A DNA stretch of 64,000 bases, taken from the NCBI GenBank assembly GCA_902495245.1, contig CABUWI010000006.1, forward strand, positions 70,444 to 134,443. Direction: 5' to 3'. The first letter of the stretch is position 1. Every line of letters starts with the position of its first letter. Position numbers and translations under genes: made by a program. The notes beneath the pieces were generated by a model that was given only the letters and a program-made list of their open reading frames with translations, did no database searches and was not told the origin of the DNA. Shown here one piece after another: positions 43,881 through 58,905 of this stretch. Source of the stretch: an uncultured Porphyromonadaceae bacterium. Its GTDB lineage: Bacteria > Bacteroidota > Bacteroidia > Bacteroidales > Muribaculaceae.

Positions 43881-46800
43881 TCAGAACGTAACACTGAGGT
43901 TGAGCGTAACGACGGGCTGAATGGCGGCGCCGAGTTGTCCGGTCTCGGGGTCAGACTCGTCGTAGGGGGTGATGGTGAAAAGGTTTGATGCCTGCAGGGC
44001 CACCGACGCATATTTAATCACGCCGTGAGTGCGGTCGAGAATGCGGCGGGGGAAGCGATAGCGGAACGAGAGCATCGACATGCGCAGATAGTCGCTGCGG
44101 CCGGTGTTGTGCGTGTTGGCATACGAGAGCGTCTCGATTGCCGACGACGAATAGAACGGCGAGGCATATTGCTTGTCCGTGTCGCCGCGGTGCAGCCACA
44201 TTGTCTGCGTCAGCCCGGCCAGGGCGTTCATGTTCACGTTGTCGCGGTCGCGCACATAGGTGTAGCTATACTGGCGCTTGCCGCCGGCCACCCAGTAGAA
44301 GTCGGCGTCAAGCTCGAACTCGCGCCATGCCAGGCTCAGGTTCACCGTGCCTGAATAAGGCGGCGTCAGGTGGCCGATTTCAACGAAGTCGTCGCGGGTC
44401 AGCTTAGTCTTGCCCGGCTCGATTTCGCGGCCGCCGGCACCGATGAACACGGGCAGGCCCGTAACGGCGTTGATGCCGCCCCACTGCAGCCCGTAAAGCA
44501 TGTCATAAGGTTTGCCGACCTCGAAGTCGGGAATCAGCGACGACTCTGAGGTGTAGATTTTGTCGGCATAATAGAGGTCGACAACTTCGTTGCGGTTGTA
44601 GGCCACCGAGGCGCCCAGACGGAAGCGGAAGTCGCGCACAATGTCGGGCAGCGTGTATGAGGCGCTGATTTCTATGCCGTCGTTGCGCAGGGTGCCCATG
44701 TTGCGCTTCATCATGTTGAAGCCGTTAGACGAGGCCACGGGCACGTCGAGCAGGGCGTCGGCCGTTTCGCGCCTGTACCACCCGAAGTCAATGTTGACGC
44801 TGCGGAAGAGGCCCAGCTGAACGCCGGCATCAATCGAGGTTGTGTGCTCAGGTTTGAGGTCGGTGTTGTAGAGCGCGAGCAGTTGCAGCAGGCGCTGGGT
44901 GCCGTAGGTGTCTTCGAGATAGGCGAACGTGCCGATGGTCTGCGCGGCGCTCACGCCCGCAAGGCTGGCCGTCTGGCCGTATGAGCCTTTGAAGTTGAGG
45001 CGCGACAGCACCGGATTGCCGTTCAGAAAGTTATACTGTGTCGGTGTCCACCCCAGGCCCGCGGCCCAGGCGCTGTTCCAGCGCTTTGACGACGGAAGCA
45101 CCGACGAGGCGTCGAGCTTGTAGGTGGCGAAGAGGTCATAGGTGTGATCGAACGTATAGCCGGCCACGGCGCCGACACCCAGCTGCACCACCTTCTCCTT
45201 CAGCGAGGCCACGGCCGGCTTGCGGCTGCCGGTAATCGACTGGTTGATGAGCGCGGCCGAGGCGTGGTTGCCGACGCCGTAGCCGGTGATGCCGAGGTTG
45301 TCAGTATCGGTCAGATAATAGTCGTGGTTGAGACTGAGCGTCAGGTCATGCTTGTCGTTGAACAGTTTGTTATAGAGCGCGCGTATGTTATACGAGAAGT
45401 TGAGCACGGTGTTCATGCTCTTGCTCAAGCGCCCCAGCTCGGCGGCGGGGAAGCCGCTCTGCTGTTCGGAATAAGACGACGCGGGCGTGAAGTGAACCAC
45501 CTCAGAAACCATGTAGTCCAGACCGGCGACGGCTGAAATCTCGCCGCCCTCGAAGGGCCGCAGGTTGATTGAGGCCGACGCGCCGCCGCGCTTGTCGTTG
45601 CTGTTGCTCTCGAACTGCTTCTGCAGGTCGTTGAACGTGCGGTTGGGATAGGACCAGAGTTTGCCGCCCGAGGGAGTCTCGTAGGGATTCAGATTATACA
45701 CGAGCGACGACGGCGAGAAGTCGCTGCCGTTGGGCGACTTGGTCTCGGTGTAGCCGCCGTCCATGTTGAACGAGAAGTAGCCTATCGAGCCGAGCTGCTG
45801 GTCAATGCCCAGGCGCAGGTTGCCGCGAAGGGTGTTGTTGCCCTTCACCTGGCCGCCCTGACTTGAAAAATTGCCCGACAGGAAGTAAGAGGTCTTTTCG
45901 TTGCCGCCGCGCACCGAAATGTTGTGGCTCTGATAGAGGGCCAGCCTCATCAGCTCGTCAAACCAGTCGGTGTTGATTGCGCGCAGCGAGTCGAGCGTGG
46001 CGGCGCCTTCGGCAATGAGCTGCTGCAGGCGCGGGTTGTTGCGCTCGTAGCGGTTATAGTAGTCGGGGCTGTAGCGATAGCCCGGCGCGGCCGGATTGCC
46101 CATCAGGCGCTCGAATTCAAGCTTTTCGGCGCTGTCCATGGTGTGGATTCCGCGGCGCCCCTTGAATGTTACGCCCATGTTGAGGCTATAAGTAACGTCG
46201 ATGCCGCCCGACTGAGTGCCGCGCTGCGAGGAGATTTCAATGACGCCGTTGGCGGCCTTGATGCCGTAGAGCGCGCATGCGGCGGCGTCTTTCAGCACCT
46301 TGATTTCGCGAATGTCCTGCGGATTGAGCGTGTTGAAGGCATCTGACGAAATGACCTTGCCGTCAAGAACGTATAGCGGCTCGTTGGCCGCATCGCCCGT
46401 GCGCAGCGACTGGTTGCCGCGAATGCGTATTTTCGGTTTCGAGCCGAGCTCGCCCGAGTTGGTTACTATCAGGCCGGGCACCGAACCCTGCAGCGCCAGG
46501 CCGAGGTCAACCATCGGCTTTTCGTTCAGGCGCTTCATGTCAACGGTCTGCACCACACCCGACCGGCTGCGAATGTCAATGGCGTTGATGTTGCTCTCGG
46601 CGCTCACAACCACCTCTTTGAGCATATTGTCGTCGCTCTCCATGGCGGCGTCCTGCTGCTCCTGGCCGTCATAGGTGAACTCAACCGGCTTCATGCCGAC
46701 GCAACTGAACTGTATTTTGGCGCCGCGCTTGAAGCGTCCGCGCAACAGATAGAAACCGTCGGCATCGGTCATGGTGCCATAGGGCGACGATTTGATTTTA

Positions 46801-46949
46801 ACCACAACTCCAGGAAGAGTCTCGCCGTGATGGTCGGTAACCACCCCGGTCAGCACGCGTTCGGGGGCGGTCTCTTCGGCCGCCGCTGAAATCGGCGACA
46901 TCAAAAGACCCGCAAACAGTGCCGTGAGCAAAAAGACATAACGTATCAT
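43881..46949 (-). CDS. SusC/RagA family TonB-linked outer membrane protein
   Basis: It has a signal peptide, a CarboxypepD_reg domain (LTGVVTDHHGETLPGVVVKIK), a plug (GSVPGLIVTNSGELGSKPKIRIRGNQSL) and a large barrel ending in LNLSVTF. I chose the ATG at 46949 (MIRYVFLL) because a -7 box lies at 46972-46979, inside the longer track ORF. Confidence 0.9.
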   Translation of the reverse strand: MIRYVFLLTALFAGLLMSPISAAAEETAPERVLTGVVTDHHGETLPGVVVKIKSSPYGTMTDADGFYLLRGRFKRGAKIQFSCVGMKPVEFTYDGQEQQDAAMESDDNMLKEVVVSAESNINAIDIRSRSGVVQTVDMKRLNEKPMVDLGLALQGSVPGLIVTNSGELGSKPKIRIRGNQSLRTGDAANEPLYVLDGKVISSDAFNTLNPQDIREIKVLKDAAACALYGIKAANGVIEISSQRGTQSGGIDVTYSLNMGVTFKGRRGIHTMDSAEKLEFERLMGNPAAPGYRYSPDYYNRYERNNPRLQQLIAEGAATLDSLRAINTDWFDELMRLALYQSHNISVRGGNEKTSYFLSGNFSSQGGQVKGNNTLRGNLRLGIDQQLGSIGYFSFNMDGGYTETKSPNGSDFSPSSLVYNLNPYETPSGGKLWSYPNRTFNDLQKQFESNSNDKRGGASASINLRPFEGGEISAVAGLDYMVSEVVHFTPASSYSEQQSGFPAAELGRLSKSMNTVLNFSYNIRALYNKLFNDKHDLTLSLNHDYYLTDTDNLGITGYGVGNHASAALINQSITGSRKPAVASLKEKVVQLGVGAVAGYTFDHTYDLFATYKLDASSVLPSSKRWNSAWAAGLGWTPTQYNFLNGNPVLSRLNFKGSYGQTASLAGVSAAQTIGTFAYLEDTYGTQRLLQLLALYNTDLKPEHTTSIDAGVQLGLFRSVNIDFGWYRRETADALLDVPVASSNGFNMMKRNMGTLRNDGIEISASYTLPDIVRDFRFRLGASVAYNRNEVVDLYYADKIYTSESSLIPDFEVGKPYDMLYGLQWGGINAVTGLPVFIGAGGREIEPGKTKLTRDDFVEIGHLTPPYSGTVNLSLAWREFELDADFYWVAGGKRQYSYTYVRDRDNVNMNALAGLTQTMWLHRGDTDKQYASPFYSSSAIETLSYANTHNTGRSDYLRMSMLSFRYRFPRRILDRTHGVIKYASVALQASNLFTITPYDESDPETGQLGAAIQPVVTLNLSVTF

Positions 46950-46971
46950 GCAATCCATTTGTAAAGTTTTG

Positions 46972-46979
46972 CAAAAGTA
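46972..46979 (-). promoter_or_regulatory. -7 box TACTTTTG upstream of the SusC-like gene
   Basis: The reverse complement of caaaagta is TACTTTTG. It lies 23 nt upstream of the ATG at 46949. Confidence 0.5.
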
Positions 46980-47099
46980 CATATAATTTCACAAATAGCC
47001 AACATTTTGCCACATTTTAACCCTAATTTTTAACATTTGGAAATTTGCATATGGCATTTTTACCCACAAAATACTATTGCGGATATTGGATATTTTTTG

Positions 47100-47107
47100 T
47101 AAATTTG
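47100..47107 (+). promoter_or_regulatory. -7 box TAAATTTG, candidate promoter of the CHASE2-caspase operon
   Basis: It is an exact TAnnTTTG match on the plus strand within the AT-rich divergent region. It lies ~150 nt upstream of the ATG at 47258, which implies a long leader. Confidence 0.4.
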
Positions 47108-47257: not shown

Positions 47258-48412
47258 ATGGGCGCAAATAAATCGAAAATCGGCTCTAACATATTGACGG
47301 CAACGCTGATTACGCTGCTGGCATTCGGTCTGTCGTTGCTTTTTTCTCAGCCGCTTGCTTTTTCGGCAGGCGCGTTGCTGCAAAGCGCCGACAAGCAGGA
47401 TTTCAACATGACCGACTTCTATAATATAGCGGCCGACGCAAGGCCGGTCATGGCGCTCGACACCAACATAGTAGTCGTTGACATCGCAAACACGACGCGC
47501 GACGACGTAACCGACGTGCTCGAACTGCTTGGCGACATGAACCCGCGGGCGGTCGGCATAGACATCACATTCAACGAGCAGCGCGAAGACGACGAACGGC
47601 TGCTTGAGGCCATTGACCGCTGCCCGAATCCGGTCCTGGCCGTAGGCGTGAGCGCCAAACCGACCGAACGCGACACTTTCATGGTCGACGATTTCTCATA
47701 TTTCTATCCGTTCAGCCGCGACTCGCGCACATACGGTGTCATCAACCTGCCGACCAAGTTCGACGGCGCCACGGTGCGCAACTTCCGTGTGGACTATACC
47801 GAGGCGGGTGGCCGTGAACTGCCGTCGTTCGCCCTGGCCGTTGCCCGCGTCGCCGACCCGCAGGCCGCCAAACGCGTCGAGGCGCGCGCCAACACGGTGG
47901 AGACCATCGACTTTCCGAGCCGCAGATTCACCGTCATACCCTGGACCGAACTGCCCGACCGGCCTGACGAAATCGACGGCAAAATCGTGTTGGTCGGCGC
48001 AATCGGCGAGCTGGGCGACGTTCATCGCACCCCGGTGAACGACAAAATGGCCGGCGTGATTATTCACGCCCACGCGCTCAGCACGATTCTGCGCGACAGT
48101 TTCTACACGGTGGCTCCGAAATTCGTCAACATCTTGCTGGCGTTTCTGATTTGTTTCTCACTGTGCTTCACCAACTTGCAGTTCAAAAGCCCGGCGCGCG
48201 GACTGTGGTTCCGCATTTATCAGATTGCCATGCTTTACCTGATGATTCGTCTCGGCTACTGGCTGTTTGTCGACAACCGCACAATCGTTGACTTTTCTTA
48301 TTCGATGCTCATGCTCGCTTTCGGCTTCTTCGCGTTTGACCTCTGGAGCGGCCTCACCCACTATATCAAACTGGCCTACAACCGAATTTTCTTCAATCAA
48401 TCACATAAATAA
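47258..48412 (+). CDS. stand-alone CHASE2 domain membrane protein (no output domain)
   Basis: It has an N-terminal TM helix (ILTATLITLLAFGLSLLF). CHASE2 blocks are IVVVDIANTTRDDV..LGDMNPRAVGIDITF, GVINLPTKFDGATVRNF and GKIVLVGAIGELGDVHRTPV..MAGVIIHAHALSTIL. Three C-terminal TM helices follow, and the protein ends ~14 aa after the last one. I prefer the ATG at 47258; the track ORF begins at a GTG at 47225. Confidence 0.8.
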   Translation: MGANKSKIGSNILTATLITLLAFGLSLLFSQPLAFSAGALLQSADKQDFNMTDFYNIAADARPVMALDTNIVVVDIANTTRDDVTDVLELLGDMNPRAVGIDITFNEQREDDERLLEAIDRCPNPVLAVGVSAKPTERDTFMVDDFSYFYPFSRDSRTYGVINLPTKFDGATVRNFRVDYTEAGGRELPSFALAVARVADPQAAKRVEARANTVETIDFPSRRFTVIPWTELPDRPDEIDGKIVLVGAIGELGDVHRTPVNDKMAGVIIHAHALSTILRDSFYTVAPKFVNILLAFLICFSLCFTNLQFKSPARGLWFRIYQIAMLYLMIRLGYWLFVDNRTIVDFSYSMLMLAFGFFAFDLWSGLTHYIKLAYNRIFFNQSHK

Positions 48413-48420
48413 GACCACAC

Positions 48421-49263
48421 ATGACACGCTTTTTATCAACAATCTTATTGCTCATAACCGCAGTCGTCGCCGTCCGCGCCGACTATAGCGTCCGAAGCGT
48501 ATCGGGCAACGTTTTGATTCAGAAATCGGGCAAGCAGACCGCCGCCACGACCGGAGCGAAGCTCGGCTCTAACGACGTCTTGATTCTTGAACGCGGCGCA
48601 AAACTGGAGATATTCGACAGCAAAGACTCGCAAATCTACACGGCCGATGCTCCGGGACAATTCACCGTTACCCGCATCATTTTCGACGCCCGCAAAAAGG
48701 CGCGCTCAAACTCGAGCGCGGTCCACGGCAAACTGCGCGTTACCAAAGACAATAAGGCCGAAGGCGTGGTCTACATCGAAAAGGGCAAGGTTACACGCTC
48801 GCTGGCAATCTACGACCCCGAAGCCCAGAACATTCAGATTGACACCGACCGCCTGAGCCGCCGCCTCTACACCATGCTCCGCAACGATTCGGCCATGTGT
48901 GCGGCCTCCGACCCCGGCGCTATCGTGCTCAATCAGCGCATCGACCCTGACGGCCTGGCCTTCATGGTGCAGAATTCGACGGAACACCCCGTCTATTTCA
49001 ACGTGTTCAAAATCAATGCCGAAAACGGCTCGGTTACCATCTCGGAGCTCGGTCAGCCCGTTGGCTGCTATGCCATTTTGCCGACTCAGTTCCTTGCCCG
49101 CGAACAGGGCGCCGGCCTCAACCCCTCCGAGCTGCACATTCTGATAATGACCGACTTCTATTTCGACATCGACGAACTGCTCGGCAAGCTCAACGCGCTC
49201 ATCGACTCCAAGCCCGAAATAAACGAGCCTGAAAGCACGCCGCTCTATCTGCTGCCCCTCTGA
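48421..49263 (+). CDS. secreted protein, FecR-like N-terminal beta-sandwich + DUF4384-like C-terminal region
   Basis: 280 aa with a signal peptide (LLLITAVVAVRA). The segment VSGNVLIQKSGKQTAATTGAKLGSNDVLILERGAKLEIFDSKDSQIY resembles the FecR sensor fold. The segment LAFMVQNSTEHPVYFNVFKINAENGSVTISEL..LHILIMTD resembles DUF4384. Confidence 0.5.
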   Translation: MTRFLSTILLLITAVVAVRADYSVRSVSGNVLIQKSGKQTAATTGAKLGSNDVLILERGAKLEIFDSKDSQIYTADAPGQFTVTRIIFDARKKARSNSSAVHGKLRVTKDNKAEGVVYIEKGKVTRSLAIYDPEAQNIQIDTDRLSRRLYTMLRNDSAMCAASDPGAIVLNQRIDPDGLAFMVQNSTEHPVYFNVFKINAENGSVTISELGQPVGCYAILPTQFLAREQGAGLNPSELHILIMTDFYFDIDELLGKLNALIDSKPEINEPESTPLYLLPL

Positions 49264-49330: not shown

Positions 49331-51433
49331 ATGAAAACACTGCTTATCCGTGCTATTATTCCGCTGTGTGCCGTTTTGGGCACAGTGCAGACAGTCATGG
49401 GTCAGGACGAGACCTCGCCGCTCCCCGCAACCGCCCAAAGCCCTGACTATCATTTCAAGCTGACAACCAATCCGACGGGTCTGACTCGCTTTTTCTACGC
49501 AATCTACCCCAACGACCAACGCTCAATCCTGAACACTCGCGGCACGCGCATCGCCGAGTTCAACGCCGACATCGAATCGGTGGTCGTGAACCCCTCCGGA
49601 CTTAACTTCACCGTCATCACCTCGGGCAAGAAAGGCACCGCCTACGTTGCCAGCACCTACGAACAAGACGAAATCAAATTCAAGTTCAACCGCAAGAAGT
49701 TCGGCCAGCCCCGCTCGGCCGCCTATACGCCCGACGCCCTGAACCTGCTCATCGCCACCGACACCACCCTCTACGTTCTCGACGCTCGCAAGTTCAAGCC
49801 CAAAGGCACGATGAAGCTCAACCACCCCGCCCGCCTCATGAAGCTGAGCGGCAACGCCTACCATCTGGCCACGGCCAACGAGGGCGAAGTTACCGTCTAC
49901 AACTACGAAGACAAAACCGTGCGCCACCACTGGAACTTCGAGTCGCCAGTAACCGACCTGCAGTTCTCGCCCGACGACACCGAACTCGCAATCACCTGCG
50001 GCGACGGCTCGGTCAACATTTACGACACCCGCTCTTTCACAATCAAGAACTCGCTTGAAAACGTGGGCGACGCCCTTTCGTCGTCCTACAACCCCGACGG
50101 CAAATACATGGCCGTGGCCCAGTCGCCCCACAGCATTGTCGTGGTCAACCTGCTTGAGCCCGAAACCGACCGCGAGGCAATCAGCGTGCCGGCCGGCAAT
50201 GTCCGCGAAGTCGTCTTCCTGCCCAACGTCAAGAAGGAGACCCTTCTGGCCTACACCACACAGCGCGCCGTCGATATCCGCAACATGAAAGACCTCGCGC
50301 CCTACTATTCGAAGCTGGTCGACGACGAAGTGAACCGCCGACTCAACGAATGGCTGAAAATGATGCCCGACGAGACGCTTGAGGAGTATCAGGCCCGTGT
50401 CAACGACGAGAGCCGCGCGCGCCAGCGCCGAATGCTTGAAGACGAAATCGCAACCGGTTTCGCCCCCGACATGCTCACGATGGCCGAAATCACCCTCGGT
50501 CAGTATGACAAACGCCACGAACTGCTCGAGGTGAACTTCAACAACATGCCGTCAATCTACCTGCCCGTCAGCAACGAAGACATCGAGGCATTCCACAGTG
50601 CCGGCGACCTTCAGTTCACCAACGCGAAATATACCGTCGGCAACAACGACCGCTTCGAACTCATCTATGCCGAAGTCGTCAACTCGGCCGACGGCAAGAC
50701 ATATATCTACAACAACATTGACCGCGTGGCGCTCAACTTCATGGCCAACGAGCCCGAAGAGGAAGTGTCGATCGAGCTTATCAAACAGCAGCAGATGGAA
50801 GAAATCAAGCTGCGCGAGCTCCAGCAGCAGATTGTCGAAGAGGCAAAGAGCCGCAACGTCATCTCAGACCACACCGGCATCACGGTCAACACTGAGGTCG
50901 TGCCCGACTACGATGCCAACGGCAACCGCATTCTCAACTACAAGGTAAACTACACCTACGAGGTTGAACCCGAATTCACCGCCCGCGAAGACTTCGGCCC
51001 CGGCAAATATCACATCAACGAATCGGGCGCCGCCCAGTCAATGCTCGAAATCGTGCGCAAGTCGATTGACGGCGAACTGGCGCGCTATGTCAAAGAGGGC
51101 AAGAAGGTCAACGTGCGCATTTCGGGCACCGCCGACTCAAGCCCCATCGTGGGCCGCATCATCTACGACGGCAGCTACGGCACGTTTGAAGACGAGCCCG
51201 CCTACAACAACGGCGAACTCACAACCATCACCGTCATGCCCAAAGGCCGCATCACCGAGAACAAGCAGCTCGCCTTCCTGCGCGCCCAGGGTGTGAAGCA
51301 ATATCTCGAAGAGAATATCAAAGAACTGCAGCAAATGAAATCGAACTACCGCATTGACATCAATGTGGCCGAAGGCAAGGGCAGCCAGTTCCGCCGCATC
51401 ACGACGGAGCTCACGTTTGTCGACGCTTTCTAA
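49331..51433 (+). CDS. secreted WD40-like beta-propeller protein with coiled-coil linker and OmpA-like C-terminal domain
   Basis: 700 aa with a signal peptide. WD-like blades include VTDLQFSPDDTELAITCGDGSVNIYDTRSF and SSSYNPDGKYMAVAQSPHSIVVVNL. The middle is acidic and helical. The C-terminus VRISGTADSSPI ... NKQLAFLRAQGVKQYL resembles the OmpA/MotB peptidoglycan-binding motif. Confidence 0.6.
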   Translation: MKTLLIRAIIPLCAVLGTVQTVMGQDETSPLPATAQSPDYHFKLTTNPTGLTRFFYAIYPNDQRSILNTRGTRIAEFNADIESVVVNPSGLNFTVITSGKKGTAYVASTYEQDEIKFKFNRKKFGQPRSAAYTPDALNLLIATDTTLYVLDARKFKPKGTMKLNHPARLMKLSGNAYHLATANEGEVTVYNYEDKTVRHHWNFESPVTDLQFSPDDTELAITCGDGSVNIYDTRSFTIKNSLENVGDALSSSYNPDGKYMAVAQSPHSIVVVNLLEPETDREAISVPAGNVREVVFLPNVKKETLLAYTTQRAVDIRNMKDLAPYYSKLVDDEVNRRLNEWLKMMPDETLEEYQARVNDESRARQRRMLEDEIATGFAPDMLTMAEITLGQYDKRHELLEVNFNNMPSIYLPVSNEDIEAFHSAGDLQFTNAKYTVGNNDRFELIYAEVVNSADGKTYIYNNIDRVALNFMANEPEEEVSIELIKQQQMEEIKLRELQQQIVEEAKSRNVISDHTGITVNTEVVPDYDANGNRILNYKVNYTYEVEPEFTAREDFGPGKYHINESGAAQSMLEIVRKSIDGELARYVKEGKKVNVRISGTADSSPIVGRIIYDGSYGTFEDEPAYNNGELTTITVMPKGRITENKQLAFLRAQGVKQYLEENIKELQQMKSNYRIDINVAEGKGSQFRRITTELTFVDAF

Positions 51434-51450: not shown

Positions 51451-54102
51451 ATGAAGTCCTCACATCTACTGACAATTGCAACCTTCAGCGTCATGGCCGC
51501 CGGCACGGCCATGGCGCTTTCATCGCACCTCGACCCCCTGCCCGGAGCCGACGCCCCCGAAATGCCGGAACTGACCTCCGGCATGCTGACCGGCGAAGGC
51601 GCCGAAGCCGCCGAAGATTCGGCTGTAGTCCTGTCGCCCGACTCGCTCGCCACTCTGGCCGGCGAGGCGTTCAAGGCCTACCGCGTCAGCAAATTCGACG
51701 GCGAGGAAGACGCCGTGCTCTATCCGCGCCTCTACGACCTCTACGAACAGGCTCTCGCCGCATTCGACGCTCAGCCGAACGCCACCCGCGGCTTCATGCA
51801 GTGTCGCGACATTCTCAAGCAAATCGACGACGAACTGCTGCGTGGCGCCTTCTTTTACTCGTCAAACAACCGCCGCGAAGAGCTCAACAAGTTTGCGCGC
51901 GCATATCTCGACATTCAGCAGCTGCCCCGCATGGAGGGCGAACGCTGGAAGCGCGACGAGCAGGTTTATCCCTTCATCTGCTACATCGCCGCCTCGTCGG
52001 CCTATAACGCCTCCGAGTGGGACAAGGCCATCGACTATTTCAAACTCTTCCTTTCGACCGGCGCGTCCGACCGCCGCGAGCAGGTCTACCAGTTCATGGG
52101 CCGCGCATGCCTCAGCGCCCGCAACTATCCGCTGGCAATCACCGTGATGCAGGAGGCCATGAAAGCCTATCCGCAAAACGAGATGTTGCCCATGATTGGC
52201 ATTCAGGCATGCGTTGACGGCGGCCACGGCCAGTTCCTGCAGGATTTCCTGACCCGGGCGCTCGAGCTCAAGCCCACCGACGTGCAGCTCATGACCCTTC
52301 AGGGTCAGCTCTATGAAGACCGCAACGACTATCGCGCTGCCATTGCCCTCTTCAACGACCTTGACCGTCTGAAGCCCAACTCGATGAGCATCACCAAGCA
52401 TCTGGGCACGAACTACTATAACATGGCCGTCAGCGCCTTCAACAACGCAATCAACGAGCCTAACGAAAAAGAGGCCAAACGCCTGCGCCGCCAGGCTCGC
52501 AACTATTTCGACGCCGCCGCCCTGAAGTTCCGCGCTATTCTCGAGTCGGACCCGACGGCCACAAAGTATATGCGCTCGCTCGGCGTCTGCTACCTCTGTC
52601 TTGAAGACAAGTCTTCGTTCTCTGAAATCAACGACAAACTCACGGCTATGGGCGAAGACCCGCTGGCCGACGTGTTCATGCCCCCGATGATGACCTATTC
52701 CGACTCGGGCAACAAGAACTTCGCCACTTCCTCGCTCGCCGACGACGGCAACGGCCTCGACGCGCCCTCCTATCGCGACTTCGCCACCCGTTACATCACC
52801 GAACGTCTCGACAAGTGGTCGAAACGCGGCGAGTTCGAACCGACCGACAAATATCAGCAGCGAGTCAACGAAACGACTCTCGCCGCCGAGGGCAAACGCC
52901 TGCAGCGAAGCGCCGCCGAGGAATATCTGAACCGCTACGGCGGCAATCTGCGCCTCGACGGACTGAAACTGATGCCCTACGACGCCACCAACGAAGTGTT
53001 CAAGATTGAATCGAGCTATGGCCCCATCATTCTGCCCGTGCCGCTGAAAAACGGCGAGGCCGAAAACTTCAAGGCCACGTTTGCCGGCGTGAACATTCGC
53101 ACTCCCCGCTACTTCATCGACGAAGAGGGCGTGAAAGTGGCCTCGGTTACTTTCGTAACTCCCGGCGGACGCAGCTACACCTACGACAACAGCAAGGCCC
53201 TGGCCTATAACGACGTGCCCGACATCGACATCGACTACAACTCGATTCTGCGCAATCCGGCCAAAAAGCAGACGCAGTCGTCAGGAAGCGAAACCGTTAC
53301 TATACGCCACAAAAGCGACGTCGACAAGGACATTCCGCAAAACCGCAATAAAGACGCCAACCGCCTGGCGCTCATCATTGCCAACGAACACTACCACGCA
53401 ACGGCCGACGTGGCCTCCGCAATCAACGACGGCGAGGCTATGGCCGAATACTGCAAACTGACGCTCGGCATTCCCGACAACAACGTCGAGCTGCTGACCG
53501 ACGCCACCCTGGGCCGCACACTCGGCGCAATCATCTCGCTCAAGGACAAGGTGAACGCACTCGGCGGCGAGGCAGACGTGCTGGTCTACTACGCCGGCCA
53601 CGGCCTACCCGACGAGCGCACCAAAGACGCCTACATTCTCCCCGTCGACGGCACCCCGACCTCTAACGCCACCTGCCTGTCGCTGGGCAAGCTTTACGAC
53701 GAGCTCTCAAACATGAAGGCAAAAACCGTTACCGTTCTGCTCGACGCCTGCTTCAGCGGTGCGCAGCGAAAGGGCGGCGGCGAAATGATCAGCGACGCCC
53801 GCTCGGTTGTCATCAAACCGAAAGAATCAGCGCCCAAGGGCAACATGCTGGTGCTCAGCGCTGCCTCGGGCAACGAAACGGCTCTGCCCTATGCCGAGAA
53901 GAACCACGGCCTCTTCACATACTACATTCTGAAACACCTCCAGGCCACCAAGGGCAACACAACGCTCAAGGAGCTGAGCGACTATGTTATCTCTAACGTG
54001 AAGAAGCAGAGCGTGTTCATCAATTCCAAACTCCAGACACCCACCGTTACCACCTCGGGCAACATGGGCGAACTCTGGCAAACCCGCAAGCTGAAGCCAT
54101 GA
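51451..54102 (+). CDS. secreted TPR-repeat protein with C-terminal caspase (peptidase C14) domain
   Basis: 883 aa with a signal peptide (FSVMAAGTAMALS). TPR-like repeats span about aa 100-400. The C14 p20 core is RLALIIANEHY...DVLVYYAGHG (catalytic His) ... VTVLLDACFSG (catalytic Cys). Confidence 0.82.
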   Translation: MKSSHLLTIATFSVMAAGTAMALSSHLDPLPGADAPEMPELTSGMLTGEGAEAAEDSAVVLSPDSLATLAGEAFKAYRVSKFDGEEDAVLYPRLYDLYEQALAAFDAQPNATRGFMQCRDILKQIDDELLRGAFFYSSNNRREELNKFARAYLDIQQLPRMEGERWKRDEQVYPFICYIAASSAYNASEWDKAIDYFKLFLSTGASDRREQVYQFMGRACLSARNYPLAITVMQEAMKAYPQNEMLPMIGIQACVDGGHGQFLQDFLTRALELKPTDVQLMTLQGQLYEDRNDYRAAIALFNDLDRLKPNSMSITKHLGTNYYNMAVSAFNNAINEPNEKEAKRLRRQARNYFDAAALKFRAILESDPTATKYMRSLGVCYLCLEDKSSFSEINDKLTAMGEDPLADVFMPPMMTYSDSGNKNFATSSLADDGNGLDAPSYRDFATRYITERLDKWSKRGEFEPTDKYQQRVNETTLAAEGKRLQRSAAEEYLNRYGGNLRLDGLKLMPYDATNEVFKIESSYGPIILPVPLKNGEAENFKATFAGVNIRTPRYFIDEEGVKVASVTFVTPGGRSYTYDNSKALAYNDVPDIDIDYNSILRNPAKKQTQSSGSETVTIRHKSDVDKDIPQNRNKDANRLALIIANEHYHATADVASAINDGEAMAEYCKLTLGIPDNNVELLTDATLGRTLGAIISLKDKVNALGGEADVLVYYAGHGLPDERTKDAYILPVDGTPTSNATCLSLGKLYDELSNMKAKTVTVLLDACFSGAQRKGGGEMISDARSVVIKPKESAPKGNMLVLSAASGNETALPYAEKNHGLFTYYILKHLQATKGNTTLKELSDYVISNVKKQSVFINSKLQTPTVTTSGNMGELWQTRKLKP

Positions 54103-54983
54103 CCCGCCGACACAAACTGATTGCGCTCGTTGCCGCCGGCCTCCTGTCGGCCGCCGCCCCGCTCACGACTGCCGCCAAAGGCGTGCAGACACTGACGGGC
54201 GAGGCCACATACTATGGCGACGCGACCGACTCGCCCGCCGAGGCCAAGCGCAAGGCCCTTGACCTGGCCCGAATCAACGCCCTGGCCCGCGAGTTCGGCA
54301 CCGTGCTCAGCCAGACAACGGTGAGCCGCGACGTGGCCGACAACGGCGCCGAGCGGCAGTTCTTCTCCTCGCTGTCCGCCTCCGAGGTCAAGGGCGAATG
54401 GATTGCCGACGAGGGCGAGCCGAAGTTCACCATCGAGCTTGACTCTGACGGCCACTACGTGGTTCATTGCCGCGTAACCATCAAGGCGAAAGAACTTTCA
54501 AACAAAGCCGCCGACTTCCACGCCACCGTTCTGCGCAACGGACTCACCGACAAACACGCCTCGACCGAGTTCAAGACGGGCGACGAGATGTTTCTGAGCT
54601 TCCGCTCGCCGGCCGACGGCTACGTGGCCGCCTATCTCGTGGCGGGCGACGACGTACTGACCCTGCTCCCCTACACATCGTCGGCCTCGGGCAAATGTCC
54701 CGTGCGCCACGACCGCGACTACATCTTCTTTTCCGCGCCCGACGGCGACAAAGAGTTCGGCACGGTTGACGAATATCTGATGCAGACCGACGGCGCTTTC
54801 GAGCACGACCGCCTCTACGTCCTCTTCTCGCCCAACGAGTTCTCGAAAGCGCTCGACCGCGCAAACGGCGACTCCATGCCGCGCGTGCAGCCCTACGAAG
54901 ACTTCGTCAGGTGGATTGCCAAACTGCGCCGCGCCGACGACGAGATGGGCATGAAAGTTTTCAACCTGACAATAAGCCAATAA
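54099..54983 (+). CDS. secreted LPP20-like + DUF4384-like protein
   Basis: 294 aa with a signal peptide. The N-terminus GEATYYGDATDSPAEAKRKALDLARINALAREFG is LPP20-like. The C-terminus FKTGDEMFLSFRSPADGYVAAYLVAGDDVLTLLP...DRLYVLFS is DUF4384-like. The start overlaps the caspase gene's stop by 4 nt. Confidence 0.5.
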   Translation: MTRRHKLIALVAAGLLSAAAPLTTAAKGVQTLTGEATYYGDATDSPAEAKRKALDLARINALAREFGTVLSQTTVSRDVADNGAERQFFSSLSASEVKGEWIADEGEPKFTIELDSDGHYVVHCRVTIKAKELSNKAADFHATVLRNGLTDKHASTEFKTGDEMFLSFRSPADGYVAAYLVAGDDVLTLLPYTSSASGKCPVRHDRDYIFFSAPDGDKEFGTVDEYLMQTDGAFEHDRLYVLFSPNEFSKALDRANGDSMPRVQPYEDFVRWIAKLRRADDEMGMKVFNLTISQ

Positions 54984-55043: not shown

Positions 55044-55685
55044 ATGAAAAAATTAGTCATGATGATGGCCGCACTCTGGCTCGCATTCGGAGCCATGGCC
55101 GCTGCACCCGAGCTCACCAAACAACAGCAGAAGCTCGTGAACAAAGAGGTCAAAGCAAAGATGAAAGACTACAAGAAAGAAGGCTGGAAAGTATTCGGCA
55201 GCACACGCACCCTCGAGGGCATGCTGACGCGCCACCTCAGCGAACTCGAAGCCGCAGGCGACGACGCCTTTGAAATCGTGGGCTACGCCAATAACTTCAA
55301 GAGCAAGAGCGTAGGCCACCAGCAGGCCGTCAACAACGCCTGCATCACCTACGCAGGTCAGGCCGGTTCGTCGCTGCGCGGCAACATCACCACCGACATC
55401 AAGGCCAACGGCTCGGACGAGGCCGACGAGTTCGAACACTTCTATGCCGCCTACCAGCGCCTCGTAGAGCGCGAAATCAAAGACGAGATGAAAGAGAGCA
55501 TCGCCCTGATTCGCGACATGGGCAACGGCGCATATGAAATGCAGGTCTACTTCATCGTCGGCCAGGATTCGGCCGCAAAGGCTCGCCAGCGCGCCGCCGA
55601 GGCTGCCATGAAAGACAGCGAAATCGCCCAGAAGCACTCTGCCACCATCTCCGACTACGTGCGCAAGGCGTTTGACCGTCAGTAA
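55044..55685 (+). CDS. hypothetical secreted protein (possibly LPP20-like fold)
   Basis: 213 aa with a signal peptide (AALWLAFGAMAAAP). It is Lys/Glu-rich and helical, with a central VGYANNFKSKSVGHQQAVNNACITYAGQAG segment. I have no confident family assignment. Confidence 0.5.
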   Translation: MKKLVMMMAALWLAFGAMAAAPELTKQQQKLVNKEVKAKMKDYKKEGWKVFGSTRTLEGMLTRHLSELEAAGDDAFEIVGYANNFKSKSVGHQQAVNNACITYAGQAGSSLRGNITTDIKANGSDEADEFEHFYAAYQRLVEREIKDEMKESIALIRDMGNGAYEMQVYFIVGQDSAAKARQRAAEAAMKDSEIAQKHSATISDYVRKAFDRQ

Positions 55686-55706: not shown

Positions 55707-57155
55707 ATGCGATACGTTCCGGCTTTCATTCTTCTGTCATTGGTCGGCCTGACGGCATCGGCCCAGAGCGCCGTCGACGATTTCGAGAAGTTCCGCAGCG
55801 AGGTCATGGGCAGCTATGCCGGCTTCCGCAACGACATTCTCAGCGACTACGCCAAATTTCTTGACGGCATCTGGGAGGAACACGAGCGCTTTGCAGGCGA
55901 GAGCCGCAATGCGCGCCCCAAGCCCAAAGAGGCACCCGTGGCGCCCGCGCGCGAAACGCCGCCCGCGCCCGCGGCACTGCCCGCGCCCAAGCCTGAAGAA
56001 CGCAAGCCCGAACCCGCAGACAATACGCCCGCCCCGCTGCCGGACCTCAAACCGGCAGCCCGCGGGGGCGCGTCGGTCTCGTTCGATTTCTACGGTCTGC
56101 CGCTGCAAATCGACGAGCGCCGACTCATGCTCAACCGCCGCCTGGCCAACGGCTCTGACTTCGCCGCCCAGTGGCGACGACTGCTCAACGACCCCGCCGC
56201 GGCCGACATGACCGCACGTCTCGCCGACCTGGCCCGCCGACTGGGGCTGAACGACTATCTCACCTTCGAACTGGTGCGCCGCTACGTCAACGGCCGCTAT
56301 GCCGACTCCCACTCGACGACGCGCACCGCCCTTGCCCACTTCCTGCTCACGGCCATGGGCTTCGACGTGCGCCCCGCCCTGTCGGGCGACGACGGCGTAC
56401 TGCTCGTGCCGGTGAAACAGACCGTCTTCGGCCGCCCATACATGGTCATGAACGGCGAAAAATTCTATGTCTTCGCCGACTCTGACAACTTCGCGGCCTC
56501 AAACCGCATCTCAACCTGCAACATTCCGGAAAACACCGAGACCGGCCGCGCCATAGACATGCGCTTCACCCGCCCGCTGAATCTGCCCGAAAAGCCCTAC
56601 GAGTTCAACATCGAGGCCAACGGCCTGAAGCTCAGCGGCACCGTCAACGAAAACATCTATCCCCTGCTCTACCGCTATCCGCAGACCGACATGGCCGTCT
56701 ATGCCACATCGATCATTGACCCCGCGCTGCGCGCCCGTCTGGTCGAGCAGCTCAAGGCCCAGCTTGACGGCCGCCCCGGACTCGACGCCGTCAACACCCT
56801 GCTCGGGTTCACGCAAAACGCCTTCGACTATGCCTCCGACGAGGTTTCACACGGCTTTGAAAAGCCCTACTTCATCGAAGAATGGCTCTACTATCCCCAA
56901 AACGACTGCGAAGACCGCGCCGTGTTCTACACCTACATGCTCTGGAACGTGCTCGGCGTCGAAAACCAGCTGCTCACCTACCCCGGCCACGAAAGCTCGT
57001 CAGTCAGGCTCGACGAGCCGCTTAACGGCGACAATTATCAATTCGACGGCCGCACATTCTACATCTCCGACCCGACCTACATCGGCGCCACCACCGGCAT
57101 GTGCATGCCCGACTTCGTCTCCGAGTCCCCCGTAATCGAATTCCACTACAAATAA
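55707..57155 (+). CDS. secreted protein with Pro-rich linker and transglutaminase-like Cys-His-Asp core
   Basis: 482 aa with a signal peptide. It has a low-complexity segment PKPKEAPVAPARETPPAPAALPAPKPEERKPEP. The C-terminus NDCEDRAVFYTYMLWNVLGVENQLLTYPGHESSSV...FYISDPTY matches the C..RA..F....G.....V....GH....D transglutaminase-like protease pattern. Confidence 0.55.
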   Translation: MRYVPAFILLSLVGLTASAQSAVDDFEKFRSEVMGSYAGFRNDILSDYAKFLDGIWEEHERFAGESRNARPKPKEAPVAPARETPPAPAALPAPKPEERKPEPADNTPAPLPDLKPAARGGASVSFDFYGLPLQIDERRLMLNRRLANGSDFAAQWRRLLNDPAAADMTARLADLARRLGLNDYLTFELVRRYVNGRYADSHSTTRTALAHFLLTAMGFDVRPALSGDDGVLLVPVKQTVFGRPYMVMNGEKFYVFADSDNFAASNRISTCNIPENTETGRAIDMRFTRPLNLPEKPYEFNIEANGLKLSGTVNENIYPLLYRYPQTDMAVYATSIIDPALRARLVEQLKAQLDGRPGLDAVNTLLGFTQNAFDYASDEVSHGFEKPYFIEEWLYYPQNDCEDRAVFYTYMLWNVLGVENQLLTYPGHESSSVRLDEPLNGDNYQFDGRTFYISDPTYIGATTGMCMPDFVSESPVIEFHYK

Positions 57156-57171
57156 CGATATTTCATAATCA

Positions 57172-57200
57172 AGGCGGACGCACTGCTCGTGCGTCCGCCT
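57172..57200. terminator. bidirectional hairpin between convergent genes (GGACGCAC/GTGCGTCC family)
   Basis: A 12-bp stem pairs aggcggacgcac (57172-83) with gtgcgtccgcct (57189-57200), and the loop is tgctc. An A/T-rich sequence follows (gattatttatt). Confidence 0.65.
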
Positions 57201-57225: not shown

Positions 57226-58905
57226 TTATTTCACCGTGAGTTTGCGGCCGTTGTGAATATATATGCCGCGAACCGAGGGCTTTGAGACGAGGCGGCGGCC
57301 GTCGATTGTAAACCAGGCGCCATCAGCGGCGGCGGGTGCGGTTTCAATCGACTCTATGCCCGACTCTTCTTTTTCCTCTTCGGGGTCATATTTCGAGAAA
57401 GTGATTTTCTTGTCTGCCACGGTTGCCTTGAGCGCTCCCTCGCAGTTGAGCGGGGCCTCCATCTGGCGCCACTCCTTCTCGCCGGGCAGCATATACACGG
57501 GCGTAACCACATAGTTGCCGTCTTTCATGACGCCGGGCATGTTGACGTTGATAGTGCGATAACCGGCCGAGGCGGGAATGCTGCGGTTCTCGGTAAACGA
57601 CATGTGGCGCGTGGCGCCTGCGCCGCCGACAAAGGGCCTGATGCGCACGCCGATTTTGATGCCGCCGGGCATGTTTTCAAACGACTGGTTGATGAAACCG
57701 CCGCCAAACGTAACCTGCTCTCCGAAGCCTACAGTGGCGGGCGAAGCGGTGAACGACTCGGCGCATACCATCACATATTGTATCTGCGAGTCGGGCTGCA
57801 GTTTCTGAATGCCGATAATGGCGTCTTGTTCGTAGTTATAGCCGCCGTTGCCGCCGCCCACACCGGTTGCGGCGGGATTAAGAGCCGTCAGCGCGAAATA
57901 GCCGTCAGACACGCCGCTCCAGCCCCAGTTGAAGTGGAAGAAGCCGTCTTCGGCCCTGTAGCCGTCGCAAACGAACTCATGGCCGCCACCGGCTTTGGTC
58001 TTGCCGCTGTAAACCACCGGACGGCCCGCAGCCAGTTCGCCATAAATCAGGTCGGTCCAGTCGTCAAGGGTGTAGCGGTTGCGCTCGGCCATTCTCATAG
58101 CCTTGTCATATTTGAAATATCTCATCAGCGCCGTACCCACCGATGCGCTGGTCGCGCCGCTCTGGTTCGTATTATAGCCCATGTTGACGCTGACGCCTAT
58201 GGTGTACATCAGGGTGGCCACGGCGTCGATTTCGGCGTCGGTCGATGCCGACGAATATGTGTCGGTCATATTGGCCCAGTCGAACTCGGTTTTCGAGAAG
58301 TCGGCCGAGAGTTGCTGACCGCCGCGTTCCCAGTTATAGGAATACGAGCCTTCGCCGACATCGGGCCACTTGTGGAAGTTCATGACCTGAGCCATGGCCG
58401 TGGCCACGCAGCCGGTCATGCAGCGCTTGCCTGAAAGTTCGGGGCACTTGGCGTTATACGGAGCCATCTGGTTCCACTGCGACGTAATCATCGGCGCCAC
58501 GTCTACGCGCGACGCGGGCTCTTCGGCTTCGTCAGCCGCAGCCTCATCATAGGCCTGCGCGCCGGCATTGACGGCTGCCTCGATTTCGGCCGCGTAGAAT
58601 TCGAGCCACGCGGCCAGCGCGGGGTTGGCTTCGAGGTCAAAAGTGCCGCTCTCGGCATATCCGAGCAGCGGTGCGGCAACATCGTCTGAGGGCAGAATCA
58701 TATAGCCGCTCCCGGTCGAAAAGACGTAAAGATTCGGCAATTCGGCAATCGGTGTCAGCGCCTGACGCGTGCCGTCAACCGCCGCATGCTTGCGCAGTGC
58801 GCCTGACTTTCCGAGACGGGCAAGGGCCTCGGCCGGAGTGAGCTCGGCGGCATTGGCCGACGCGAGTCCGCACAGAGCCACGGCAAAGAGTGATAATTTT
58901 TTCAT
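57226..58905 (-). CDS. C10 family cysteine peptidase (streptopain-like) with Spi-inhibitor-like N-terminal region and T9SS C-terminal sorting domain
   Basis: 559 aa with a signal peptide. The prodomain pattern is LYVFSTGSGYMILPSDDVAAPLLGY. The catalytic Cys context is QWNQMAPYN..C..GCVATAMAQVMNFHKWP and the His context is GGHEFVCDGY..FHFNWGWSG. The C-terminus GAWFTIDGRRLVSKPSVRGIYIHNGRKLTVK is like a type A T9SS CTD. Confidence 0.85.
   Translation of the reverse strand: MKKLSLFAVALCGLASANAAELTPAEALARLGKSGALRKHAAVDGTRQALTPIAELPNLYVFSTGSGYMILPSDDVAAPLLGYAESGTFDLEANPALAAWLEFYAAEIEAAVNAGAQAYDEAAADEAEEPASRVDVAPMITSQWNQMAPYNAKCPELSGKRCMTGCVATAMAQVMNFHKWPDVGEGSYSYNWERGGQQLSADFSKTEFDWANMTDTYSSASTDAEIDAVATLMYTIGVSVNMGYNTNQSGATSASVGTALMRYFKYDKAMRMAERNRYTLDDWTDLIYGELAAGRPVVYSGKTKAGGGHEFVCDGYRAEDGFFHFNWGWSGVSDGYFALTALNPAATGVGGGNGGYNYEQDAIIGIQKLQPDSQIQYVMVCAESFTASPATVGFGEQVTFGGGFINQSFENMPGGIKIGVRIRPFVGGAGATRHMSFTENRSIPASAGYRTINVNMPGVMKDGNYVVTPVYMLPGEKEWRQMEAPLNCEGALKATVADKKITFSKYDPEEEKEESGIESIETAPAAADGAWFTIDGRRLVSKPSVRGIYIHNGRKLTVK

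Follow-up and report, generated by a model that had tools for sequence, protein, structure and literature searches.

A predicted exported orthocaspase-type C14 protease with a TPR head, a new middle domain and conserved WD40 and DUF4384 partners in a seven-gene operon of Muribaculaceae

The window analysed here is the whole stretch of 64,000 nucleotides (nt) at positions 70,444 to 134,443 of contig CABUWI010000006.1 (GenBank assembly GCA_902495245.1), which comes from an uncultured Porphyromonadaceae bacterium placed in the Muribaculaceae by its GTDB lineage. The gene under study encodes a caspase homologue and is the fourth of seven co-directional genes, which follow each other with gaps of 8, 67, 17, -4, 60 and 21 nt and have one promoter-like box and one terminator for all seven (Table 1). 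Its open reading frame (ORF) of 883 codons, taken from the ORF list and its translation, begins at the first possible start after a stop, and no in-frame start codon is found further upstream after that stop; the preceding gene ends 17 nt before it. As predicted from the sequence, the product of 883 amino acid residues (aa) is an orthocaspase-type protein of MEROPS family C14, which lacks the p10 part of metacaspases and has an intact catalytic dyad of His717 and Cys767. An AlphaFold2 (AF2) model of the protein, built on 24 homologues, has a mean predicted local distance difference test score (pLDDT) of 79, and in the model linkers at residues 409–436 and 602–619 lie on either side of a separate domain between the TPR solenoid and the caspase domain.

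The caspase domain is recognised by the Pfam family Peptidase_C14 (PF00656) at residues 638–868 (E value 4.8e-20, 72.7 bits compared with a cut-off of 21.4 bits), where positions 2–225 of the 233 in the family model are covered. In the Foldseek search of the PDB, the C-terminal domain of the AF2 model matches MALT1 (E 5.6e-8), caspase-9 and caspase-8 (target TM-scores of 0.70–0.72, with 0.72 for caspase-9) and the metacaspase AtMC9. The 116 aa that remain after Cys767 supply the fold with its final strands and helices, and no further Pfam family is found there; following the loop of residues 770–794, the strands 799–803 and 865–869 and the helices 821–858 are all present in the model. Since the Pfam model is covered over this length and the last strands and helices are modelled, the caspase fold is predicted to be complete, and it is p10-less as in the orthocaspases. 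Moreover, none of the marks of type I or type II metacaspases (a p10 with a calcium-binding loop, a Pro-rich or zinc-finger prodomain, a long linker between p20 and p10) is found in the sequence or in the AF2 model, and no CHAT domain (PF12770) is matched after the TPR region at E up to 1, the protease domain being C14.

In the phmmer alignment with metacaspase 9, I-N-D-G-E-A-M is placed on I-N-D-V-L-A-M, YYAGHG with His717 on HYSGHG, and L-D-A-C-F-S-G with Cys767 on D-S-x-H-S-G of an active-site mutant in which the Cys is mutated. Asp660 and Asp765 are aligned with the S1-pocket Asp residues of AtMC9, in the N-D and D-x-C motifs, and we take the S1-acidifying positions of metacaspases to be those of TbMCA2 and AtMC9. 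In metacaspases, Asp residues at these positions make the pocket acidic (PMC5756287). An acidic S1 pocket is predicted for the window protein on the same two residues, and because they match the metacaspase S1 aspartates, cleavage after Arg or Lys is predicted. His717, Cys767, Asp660 and Asp765 are invariant in the 24 orthologues, which have 45–99% identity, and 50 more distant relatives have the equivalent residues without exception. This bears on a reading which we regard as highly improbable, namely that the protein is a non-catalytic scaffold or else a cytoplasmic protein with its true start at Met15 or Met21: pseudo-orthocaspases do exist (PMC6426788), but the invariance of the dyad and of both S1 Asp residues argues against a pseudo-protease. 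In addition, R773, R784 and K791 in the loop after the catalytic Cys are invariant across the 24 homologues, and both Arg residues are at least 90% conserved in the 50 wider relatives; the loop is plausibly a place of autoprocessing. A preliminary description of the gene, made from the letters of the DNA, had already reported the His in YYAGHG and the Cys in LDACFSG as an intact dyad and an end of the protein about 100 aa after the Cys, and both statements are borne out. Its statement that no p10 or other C-terminal module follows is right in the sequence-family (orthocaspase) sense but not for the fold, which lacks nothing in the model. Structure prediction with Foldseek, which it had proposed as a check, and alignment of the catalytic residues both agree with it, the former by the matches named above and the latter by the alignment of the His, the Asp-x-Cys and the S1 Asp with AtMC9.

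In the N-terminal half, Pfam TPR families match at residues ~180–320, and the Foldseek (PDB) and phmmer matches are consensus TPR proteins and OGT. The preliminary description had about 300 aa of TPR-like repeats before the caspase domain; the solenoid is there, but it is separated from the protease by the domain of residues 441–600, which had been missed. With Pfam, no match to this middle domain is obtained even at E up to 10, and the domain is new. It is homologous to residues 323–469 of the WD40 protein encoded just upstream, and hidden Markov models of the copies in the caspase and WD40 proteins find each other in every locus examined. A weak KTSC-domain match at residues 391–426 of the WD40 protein (E 0.0009, below the cut-off) is the sole hint of a known family for the shared domain. 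The middle domain and the caspase domain form a module of wide occurrence, as the exhaustive library search with both as one query gives 2,103 clusters at E < 1e-30. Among 50 sampled members, the N-terminal heads are TPR in 11, BspA-type LRR in 10, WG repeats in nine and LRR_8 in five, and single sampled members have OmpH, thioredoxin-like, PEGA or Sel1 domains. The module carries swappable heads such as TPR, LRR and WG. Because relatives swap the TPR for LRR or WG on the same module, the earlier proposal that the TPR region selects substrates, or ligands, gains indirect support.

The case for export starts with the N-terminus, which has Lys at residue 2, an uncharged hydrophobic stretch of 18 residues and A-M-A at residues 20–22, and which passes a simple heuristic for the n-, h- and c-regions of signal peptides, calibrated on the genome (28% of the 1,360 ORFs of at least 250 aa pass), in agreement with the signal peptide of the preliminary description. 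The hydrophobic character is kept in ~19 of the 24 homologues though the sequence is not conserved, and the exceptions resemble mis-called starts. Furthermore, an export signal or a transmembrane segment is present in each of the seven operon products, and the rule is passed by seven out of seven, for which the chance would be ~1 in 7,000 if the seven were independent. Among the best relatives of the middle-domain-plus-caspase module, 113 out of 147 pass the rule as well, and in some relatives domains of the envelope type, for example OmpH, are present. These sequence features all speak for action outside the cytoplasm. For the cytoplasmic form mentioned above, there are internal Met codons at residues 15 and 21, but against it, orthologues with a completely diverged N-terminal sequence still have the hydrophobic stretch. 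The periplasm is the most likely destination, and it is favoured over the cell surface because a lipobox Cys and a C-terminal domain of the type IX secretion system (T9SS) are both missing: no lipobox is present, with no Cys before residue 118, and no NCBIfam sorting domain of the TIGR04183 type is matched at E up to 1 in the caspase protein, while the product of a neighbouring gene does match. Of the two places named in the preliminary description, periplasm or cell surface, the second is therefore less favoured.

The same N-terminal stretch could be an uncleaved signal anchor, which would tether the protease, on the periplasmic side, to the inner membrane. For such a tethered form, which we consider unlikely, speak the long and moderately hydrophobic h-region of 18 uncharged residues and the following flexible linker of ~40 aa, as in tethered periplasmic domains; the canonical A-x-A at 20–22, the small residues at -3 and -1 in most homologues and the Ser, Thr and Gly within the hydrophobic stretch, which are typical of cleaved signals, speak for cleavage. 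Export also raises the question of a digestive function. Gingipains and other exported clan CD proteases of the Bacteroidales, an order to which the window protein belongs too, cut after Arg or Lys, but they are of families C25 and C11, are exported either as lipoproteins or through the T9SS, and serve in digestion or virulence. That the window protein is likewise a released protease for host or dietary protein, as gingipains, C10 and C11 proteases of Bacteroidales are, would suit an exported cysteine protease of clan CD for which cleavage after Arg or Lys is predicted, and a gene for a T9SS-type C10 protease adjoins the operon and a SusC/SusD locus lies upstream. However, with neither a T9SS domain nor a lipobox there is no known route through the outer membrane, the large TPR and middle domains are non-catalytic, the obligatory partners are non-enzymatic, and the caspase gene is outside the SusC/SusD unit, which is on the opposite strand, and we rate a digestive role as very unlikely. 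A literature search for C14 in studies of Bacteroides vesicles found nothing relevant.

Table 1. Features of the operon and of the caspase gene in the window
Feature	Position	Strand	Basis
TAnnTTTG box (Bacteroidetes-type -7 element, putative function)	47100..47107	+	Pattern search; only plus-strand one before the operon
CHASE2 membrane protein, first operon gene, no output domain	47258..48412	+	Pfam CHASE2 E 5e-26; N- and C-terminal hydrophobic segments
280-aa predicted exported protein, unknown family	48421..49263	+	Signal peptide by heuristic
700-aa predicted exported protein: WD40 propeller, middle domain, conserved C-terminal domain	49331..51433	+	Pfam beta-propeller families
TPR / middle-domain / C14 caspase gene, 883 aa	51451..54102	+	ORF; Pfam C14 and TPR; 24 homologues at 45–99% identity
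Predicted Sec signal peptide, residues 1–22, probable cleavage after A-M-A	51451..51516	+	n/h/c heuristic; hydrophobic character kept in homologues; no lipobox Cys
Disordered acidic Pro-rich linker, residues 23–62	51517..51636	+	pLDDT < 50 for residues 1–60; length and sequence variable in alignment
TPR-type helical solenoid, residues 63–399, 16 helices	51637..52647	+	AF2 pLDDT > 90; Pfam TPR_16/14/8/2
Middle alpha/beta domain of ~160 aa, residues 441–600	52771..53250	+	AF2 pLDDT ~85; BLASTP E 2e-7 to WD40 protein
C14 caspase-fold domain, complete in the model, residues 620–883	53308..54099	+	Pfam E 4.8e-20; Foldseek; alignment to AtMC9
His717 codon	53599..53601	+	Within C14 domain
Cys767 codon	53749..53751	+	Within C14 domain
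Disordered loop after catalytic Cys, residues 770–794, candidate autoprocessing loop	53758..53832	+	pLDDT < 50; invariant R773, R784, K791
294-aa predicted exported DUF4384 protein	54099..54983	+	Start overlaps caspase stop codon by 4 nt; signal by heuristic
213-aa predicted exported protein, unknown family	55044..55685	+	Signal peptide by heuristic; kept in most orthologous loci
482-aa predicted exported protein, Pro/Ala/Lys-rich linker, transglutaminase-like (weak)	55707..57155	+	Alignment invariants
Hairpin, 12-bp G+C-rich, then T-rich tail	57172..57200	+	Terminator scan; after last operon gene

The conservation of the two direct neighbours was followed in the 80 best full-length relatives among species-representative genomes, nearly all of which are labelled Muribaculaceae, Duncaniella, Paramuribaculum, Muribaculum or Sangeribacter. 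A DUF4384 gene is present within 500 nt downstream of the caspase gene in 79 out of 80 species-level genomes, and a gene for the WD40 protein stands upstream of it and beside it in 75 out of 80. The gene order is the same at the orthologous loci, and the genomic surroundings differ. The CHASE2 gene occurs only with the closer orthologues, and the 280-aa gene is likewise found in part of the loci. In other Bacteroidota the parts are fused: in L052 (8417–10651) WD40, middle and C14 domains are encoded in one ORF, and in L047 (10251–12131) one ORF encodes the C-terminal domain of the WD40 protein together with C14, in both cases with a DUF4384 gene next door. Such fusions argue for a physical cooperation of these proteins. 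Many genomes also hold paralogues with the build X-middle-C14, TPR-C14 or C14 alone, and each one examined adjoins a DUF4384 homologue. A match to the protein is found in four out of six genomes of the genus sample, in 53 out of 151 of the family sample (about 25 of them with the full architecture), in 65 out of 301 of the order sample and in 19 out of 401 of the phylum sample. A full-length orthologue at 45% identity is encoded in L067, which is labelled as a cultured strain, Odoribacter lunatus DSM 112344. Signs of decay are seen in some lineages, with an in-frame TGA in one orthologue (G093:C2:172310-174802) and a WD40 gene split into two ORFs in another genome (L016 6531–8601).

Regarding the partners, the membership of the 294-aa protein in DUF4384 (PF14326) is below the cut-off for the window protein itself (E 0.053), while 14 out of 21 family members reach E <= 0.01 (best 9e-7) and the family is named DUF4384 by the sources. 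Its AF2 model (pLDDT 88.9) shows two domains, an N-terminal one of helix/hairpin type and a beta-sandwich, for which Foldseek gives weak matches only, to a flagellar periplasmic scaffold chain (E 1.9e-3) and to a Wzt carbohydrate-binding domain (E 1e-2). The 482-aa protein has a linker of ~55 aa rich in Pro, Ala, Lys and Glu, and invariant Cys401 (in D-C-E-D-R), His428 and Asp455; the Transglut_core match in its family is faint, with two out of 13 members at E 0.003. Profile searches of the PDB with these two proteins give no significant match. For the C-terminus of the WD40 protein an OmpA-like label is unproven, as Pfam OmpA is matched with E 0.099 and a profile of 10 sequences found nothing in the PDB. 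The CHASE2 protein stops shortly after its last hydrophobic segment, without a cytoplasmic output domain. No Pfam family is matched by the 213-aa protein, nor by the 280-aa protein in seven orthologues; the latter was considered as FecR-like or DUF4384-like, which was dropped, there being no Pfam match and the hhalign comparison with the DUF4384 family having aligned the signal peptides only. The operon is flanked by the gene for the C10 cysteine protease (57226–58905, minus strand), which is T9SS-type with a Spi-inhibitor-like prodomain, and upstream by a SusC/RagA-type transporter gene (43881–46982, minus strand) in the SusC/SusD locus. Neither of these opposite-strand genes is conserved beside the operon in other genomes.

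Considering the domain build, the export signals and the conserved neighbours together, we assume with a probability of roughly 0.6 that the protein is a Sec-exported, probably soluble periplasmic C14 protease, which serves as one subunit of an envelope assembly encoded by the seven-gene operon. The fixed core of this assembly would consist of the upstream WD40 protein, the caspase and the downstream DUF4384 protein. The shared middle domains may dock the protease to the WD40 protein, and the TPR head may bind or select a periplasmic protein ligand or substrate. The enzyme would be latent until it is cut in the basic loop after Cys767, at R773, R784 or K791, by analogy with the orthocaspase MaOC1, and the active form would then cleave partners, for which the candidates are the DUF4384 protein and, with a linker rich in Lys and Arg, the transglutaminase-like protein. 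Such cleavage might change the cell envelope, or might signal through the CHASE2 membrane protein. The partners could thus be substrates or regulators, and the DUF4384 protein is the first candidate because orthocaspases commonly have DUF4384 as an accessory domain (23 out of 473 in cyanobacteria, PMC8283722) and because the domain also stands at the end of some of the Csx30 proteins that the TPR-CHAT craspase has as substrates (bioRxiv 2022.08.17.504292).

Several points weigh against this interpretation. The signal-peptide call comes from a heuristic, in which the h-region of the caspase protein is the weakest of the seven (2.06), and an uncleaved signal anchor is possible. The predicted template-modelling score of the AF2 model is 0.40, which gives no information on how the domains are packed, nor on the earlier proposal that the TPR region could hold the protease inactive. 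The Arg residues conserved after Cys767 may have a structural role instead of being cleavage sites. Moreover, many paralogues in the Bacteroidales stand alone without WD40 and DUF4384 partners, and the CHASE2 and 280-aa genes are absent from several orthologous loci (L016, L017, L033), so that these two genes are not essential to the core. Finally, the substrates, the activation and the roles of the TPR region and of the partners are all inferred.

The closest studied analogue of the protein in location and build is DdvA of Myxococcus xanthus (PMC11506125; PDB 8rot/8rw5), which is also periplasmic and also has a TPR solenoid followed by a clan CD caspase fold with a His-Cys dyad. It covers most of the AF2 model as a Foldseek match (E ~1.5e-6), a resemblance which is structural only, since its protease domain is CHAT and not C14, it is a dimeric transmembrane anti-sigma factor, and it has neither a middle domain nor WD40 and DUF4384 partners. 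This periplasmic TPR-CHAT protein is proposed to sense a protein signal and to cut in response, and proteolysis is unproven (PMC11506125). The model and the Foldseek match lend some weight to another reading of the window protein, namely a periplasmic protease in biological conflict, whose head would recognise a foreign periplasmic protein from a phage, a competitor effector or the host and whose caspase would trigger an envelope response or suicide, as proposed for DdvA. The swappable TPR, LRR and WG heads on a constant protease module would fit a conflict role, as would the patchy distribution in the family and genus samples, the several paralogues per genome and the occurrence of the cassette in different genomic contexts. 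On the other hand, PADLOC matches none of the partners and has for the protease the generic caspase model only, the NCBIfam model for EACC1-associated caspases (NF047832) stays at 73.1 bits, below its cut-off of 140 bits, with no EACC1 neighbour, no recognisable toxic effector was found, the flanks are housekeeping genes and not defence islands, and in at least 80 species the triad is passed on stably. Membership in a defence system was dropped on the PADLOC and EACC1 results. The modules described in PMC12642450 are cytoplasmic, and neither the periplasm nor DUF4384 is mentioned there. We hold a conflict role to be doubtful; together with the membrane-tethered form it is the only rival that is still realistic. 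A further proposal, which is unlikely, is a periplasmic pattern-recognition protease, in which foreign or damaged proteins in the periplasm would be caught by the head, the caspase would activate itself and cut the DUF4384 and transglutaminase-like partners on the WD40 scaffold, and the envelope would be remodelled or sacrificed. If this were true, it would be an extracytoplasmic counterpart of cytosolic caspase-based immunity.

To our knowledge, every bacterial caspase homologue that has been studied biochemically acts in the cytoplasm. Many exported ones have been predicted, and we know of none whose function has been tested or for which a substrate, a trigger or a role is known. A survey of 2012 (Asplund-Samuelsson et al., PMC3501461) reported TPR fusions, an 'extracellular' class and probable signal peptides among prokaryotic caspase homologues. 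Its proteins are like the window protein in that they have C14 with the His-Cys dyad, 46 single-domain sequences among them have a probable signal peptide, and TPR is one of their commonest accessory domains, but the survey is a catalogue only, without the middle domain, the N-terminal placement of accessory domains or the WD40 and DUF4384 partners. Exported caspase homologues and TPR fusions were thus already catalogued in 2012, the headline is not new, and the rarity implied in the preliminary description was overstated. Three features were found undescribed, namely the middle domain, the design in which a swappable head precedes the middle and caspase domains, and the WD40 and DUF4384 partners, which are near-invariant. 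MaOC1 of Microcystis aeruginosa (Klemencic et al. 2015, reviewed in PMC5756287) shares the p10-less C14 domain and the acidic S1 pocket, and its Arg specificity and autoprocessing after Arg serve as the model here; unlike the window protein, it is cytoplasmic, with no signal peptide and no comparable operon. Accessory domains of orthocaspases are usually C-terminal to p20, whereas in the window protein they are N-terminal. AtMC9 (8a53) and MALT1 (7paw) are alike in fold, in dyad positions and in the S1 Asp of the N-D and D-x-C motifs, but they are eukaryotic and cytosolic, and the window protein has no p10 calcium-binding loop, prodomain, death domain or Ig domain. In the craspase, Csx29 (TPR-CHAT) is a TPR-linked caspase-fold protease as well and its substrate Csx30 ends in DUF4384 in some lineages, but it is cytoplasmic, RNA-guided and CHAT, and the DUF4384 link is an analogy only. 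The locus is a compact and strongly conserved test case in abundant gut bacteria, with a protease, a WD40 scaffold and a DUF4384 partner, and it comes with the predictions of Arg/Lys specificity, of processing in a defined loop and of pairing via the shared middle domain. If its substrates were identified, DUF4384, and periplasmic caspases in general, would for the first time have a function assigned.

A second C14 protein, of 311 aa, with a signal-peptide-like N-terminus (Pfam E 5.7e-16) is encoded at another place (L002 104–2322, minus strand, on contig C2 of G000). It is followed on the same strand by genes for two further proteins, one of 187 aa that matches Sigma70_r2 weakly (E 0.006, below the cut-off) and one of 230 aa with a single central hydrophobic segment, and these genes may form a trio of sigma factor, anti-sigma factor and periplasmic caspase.

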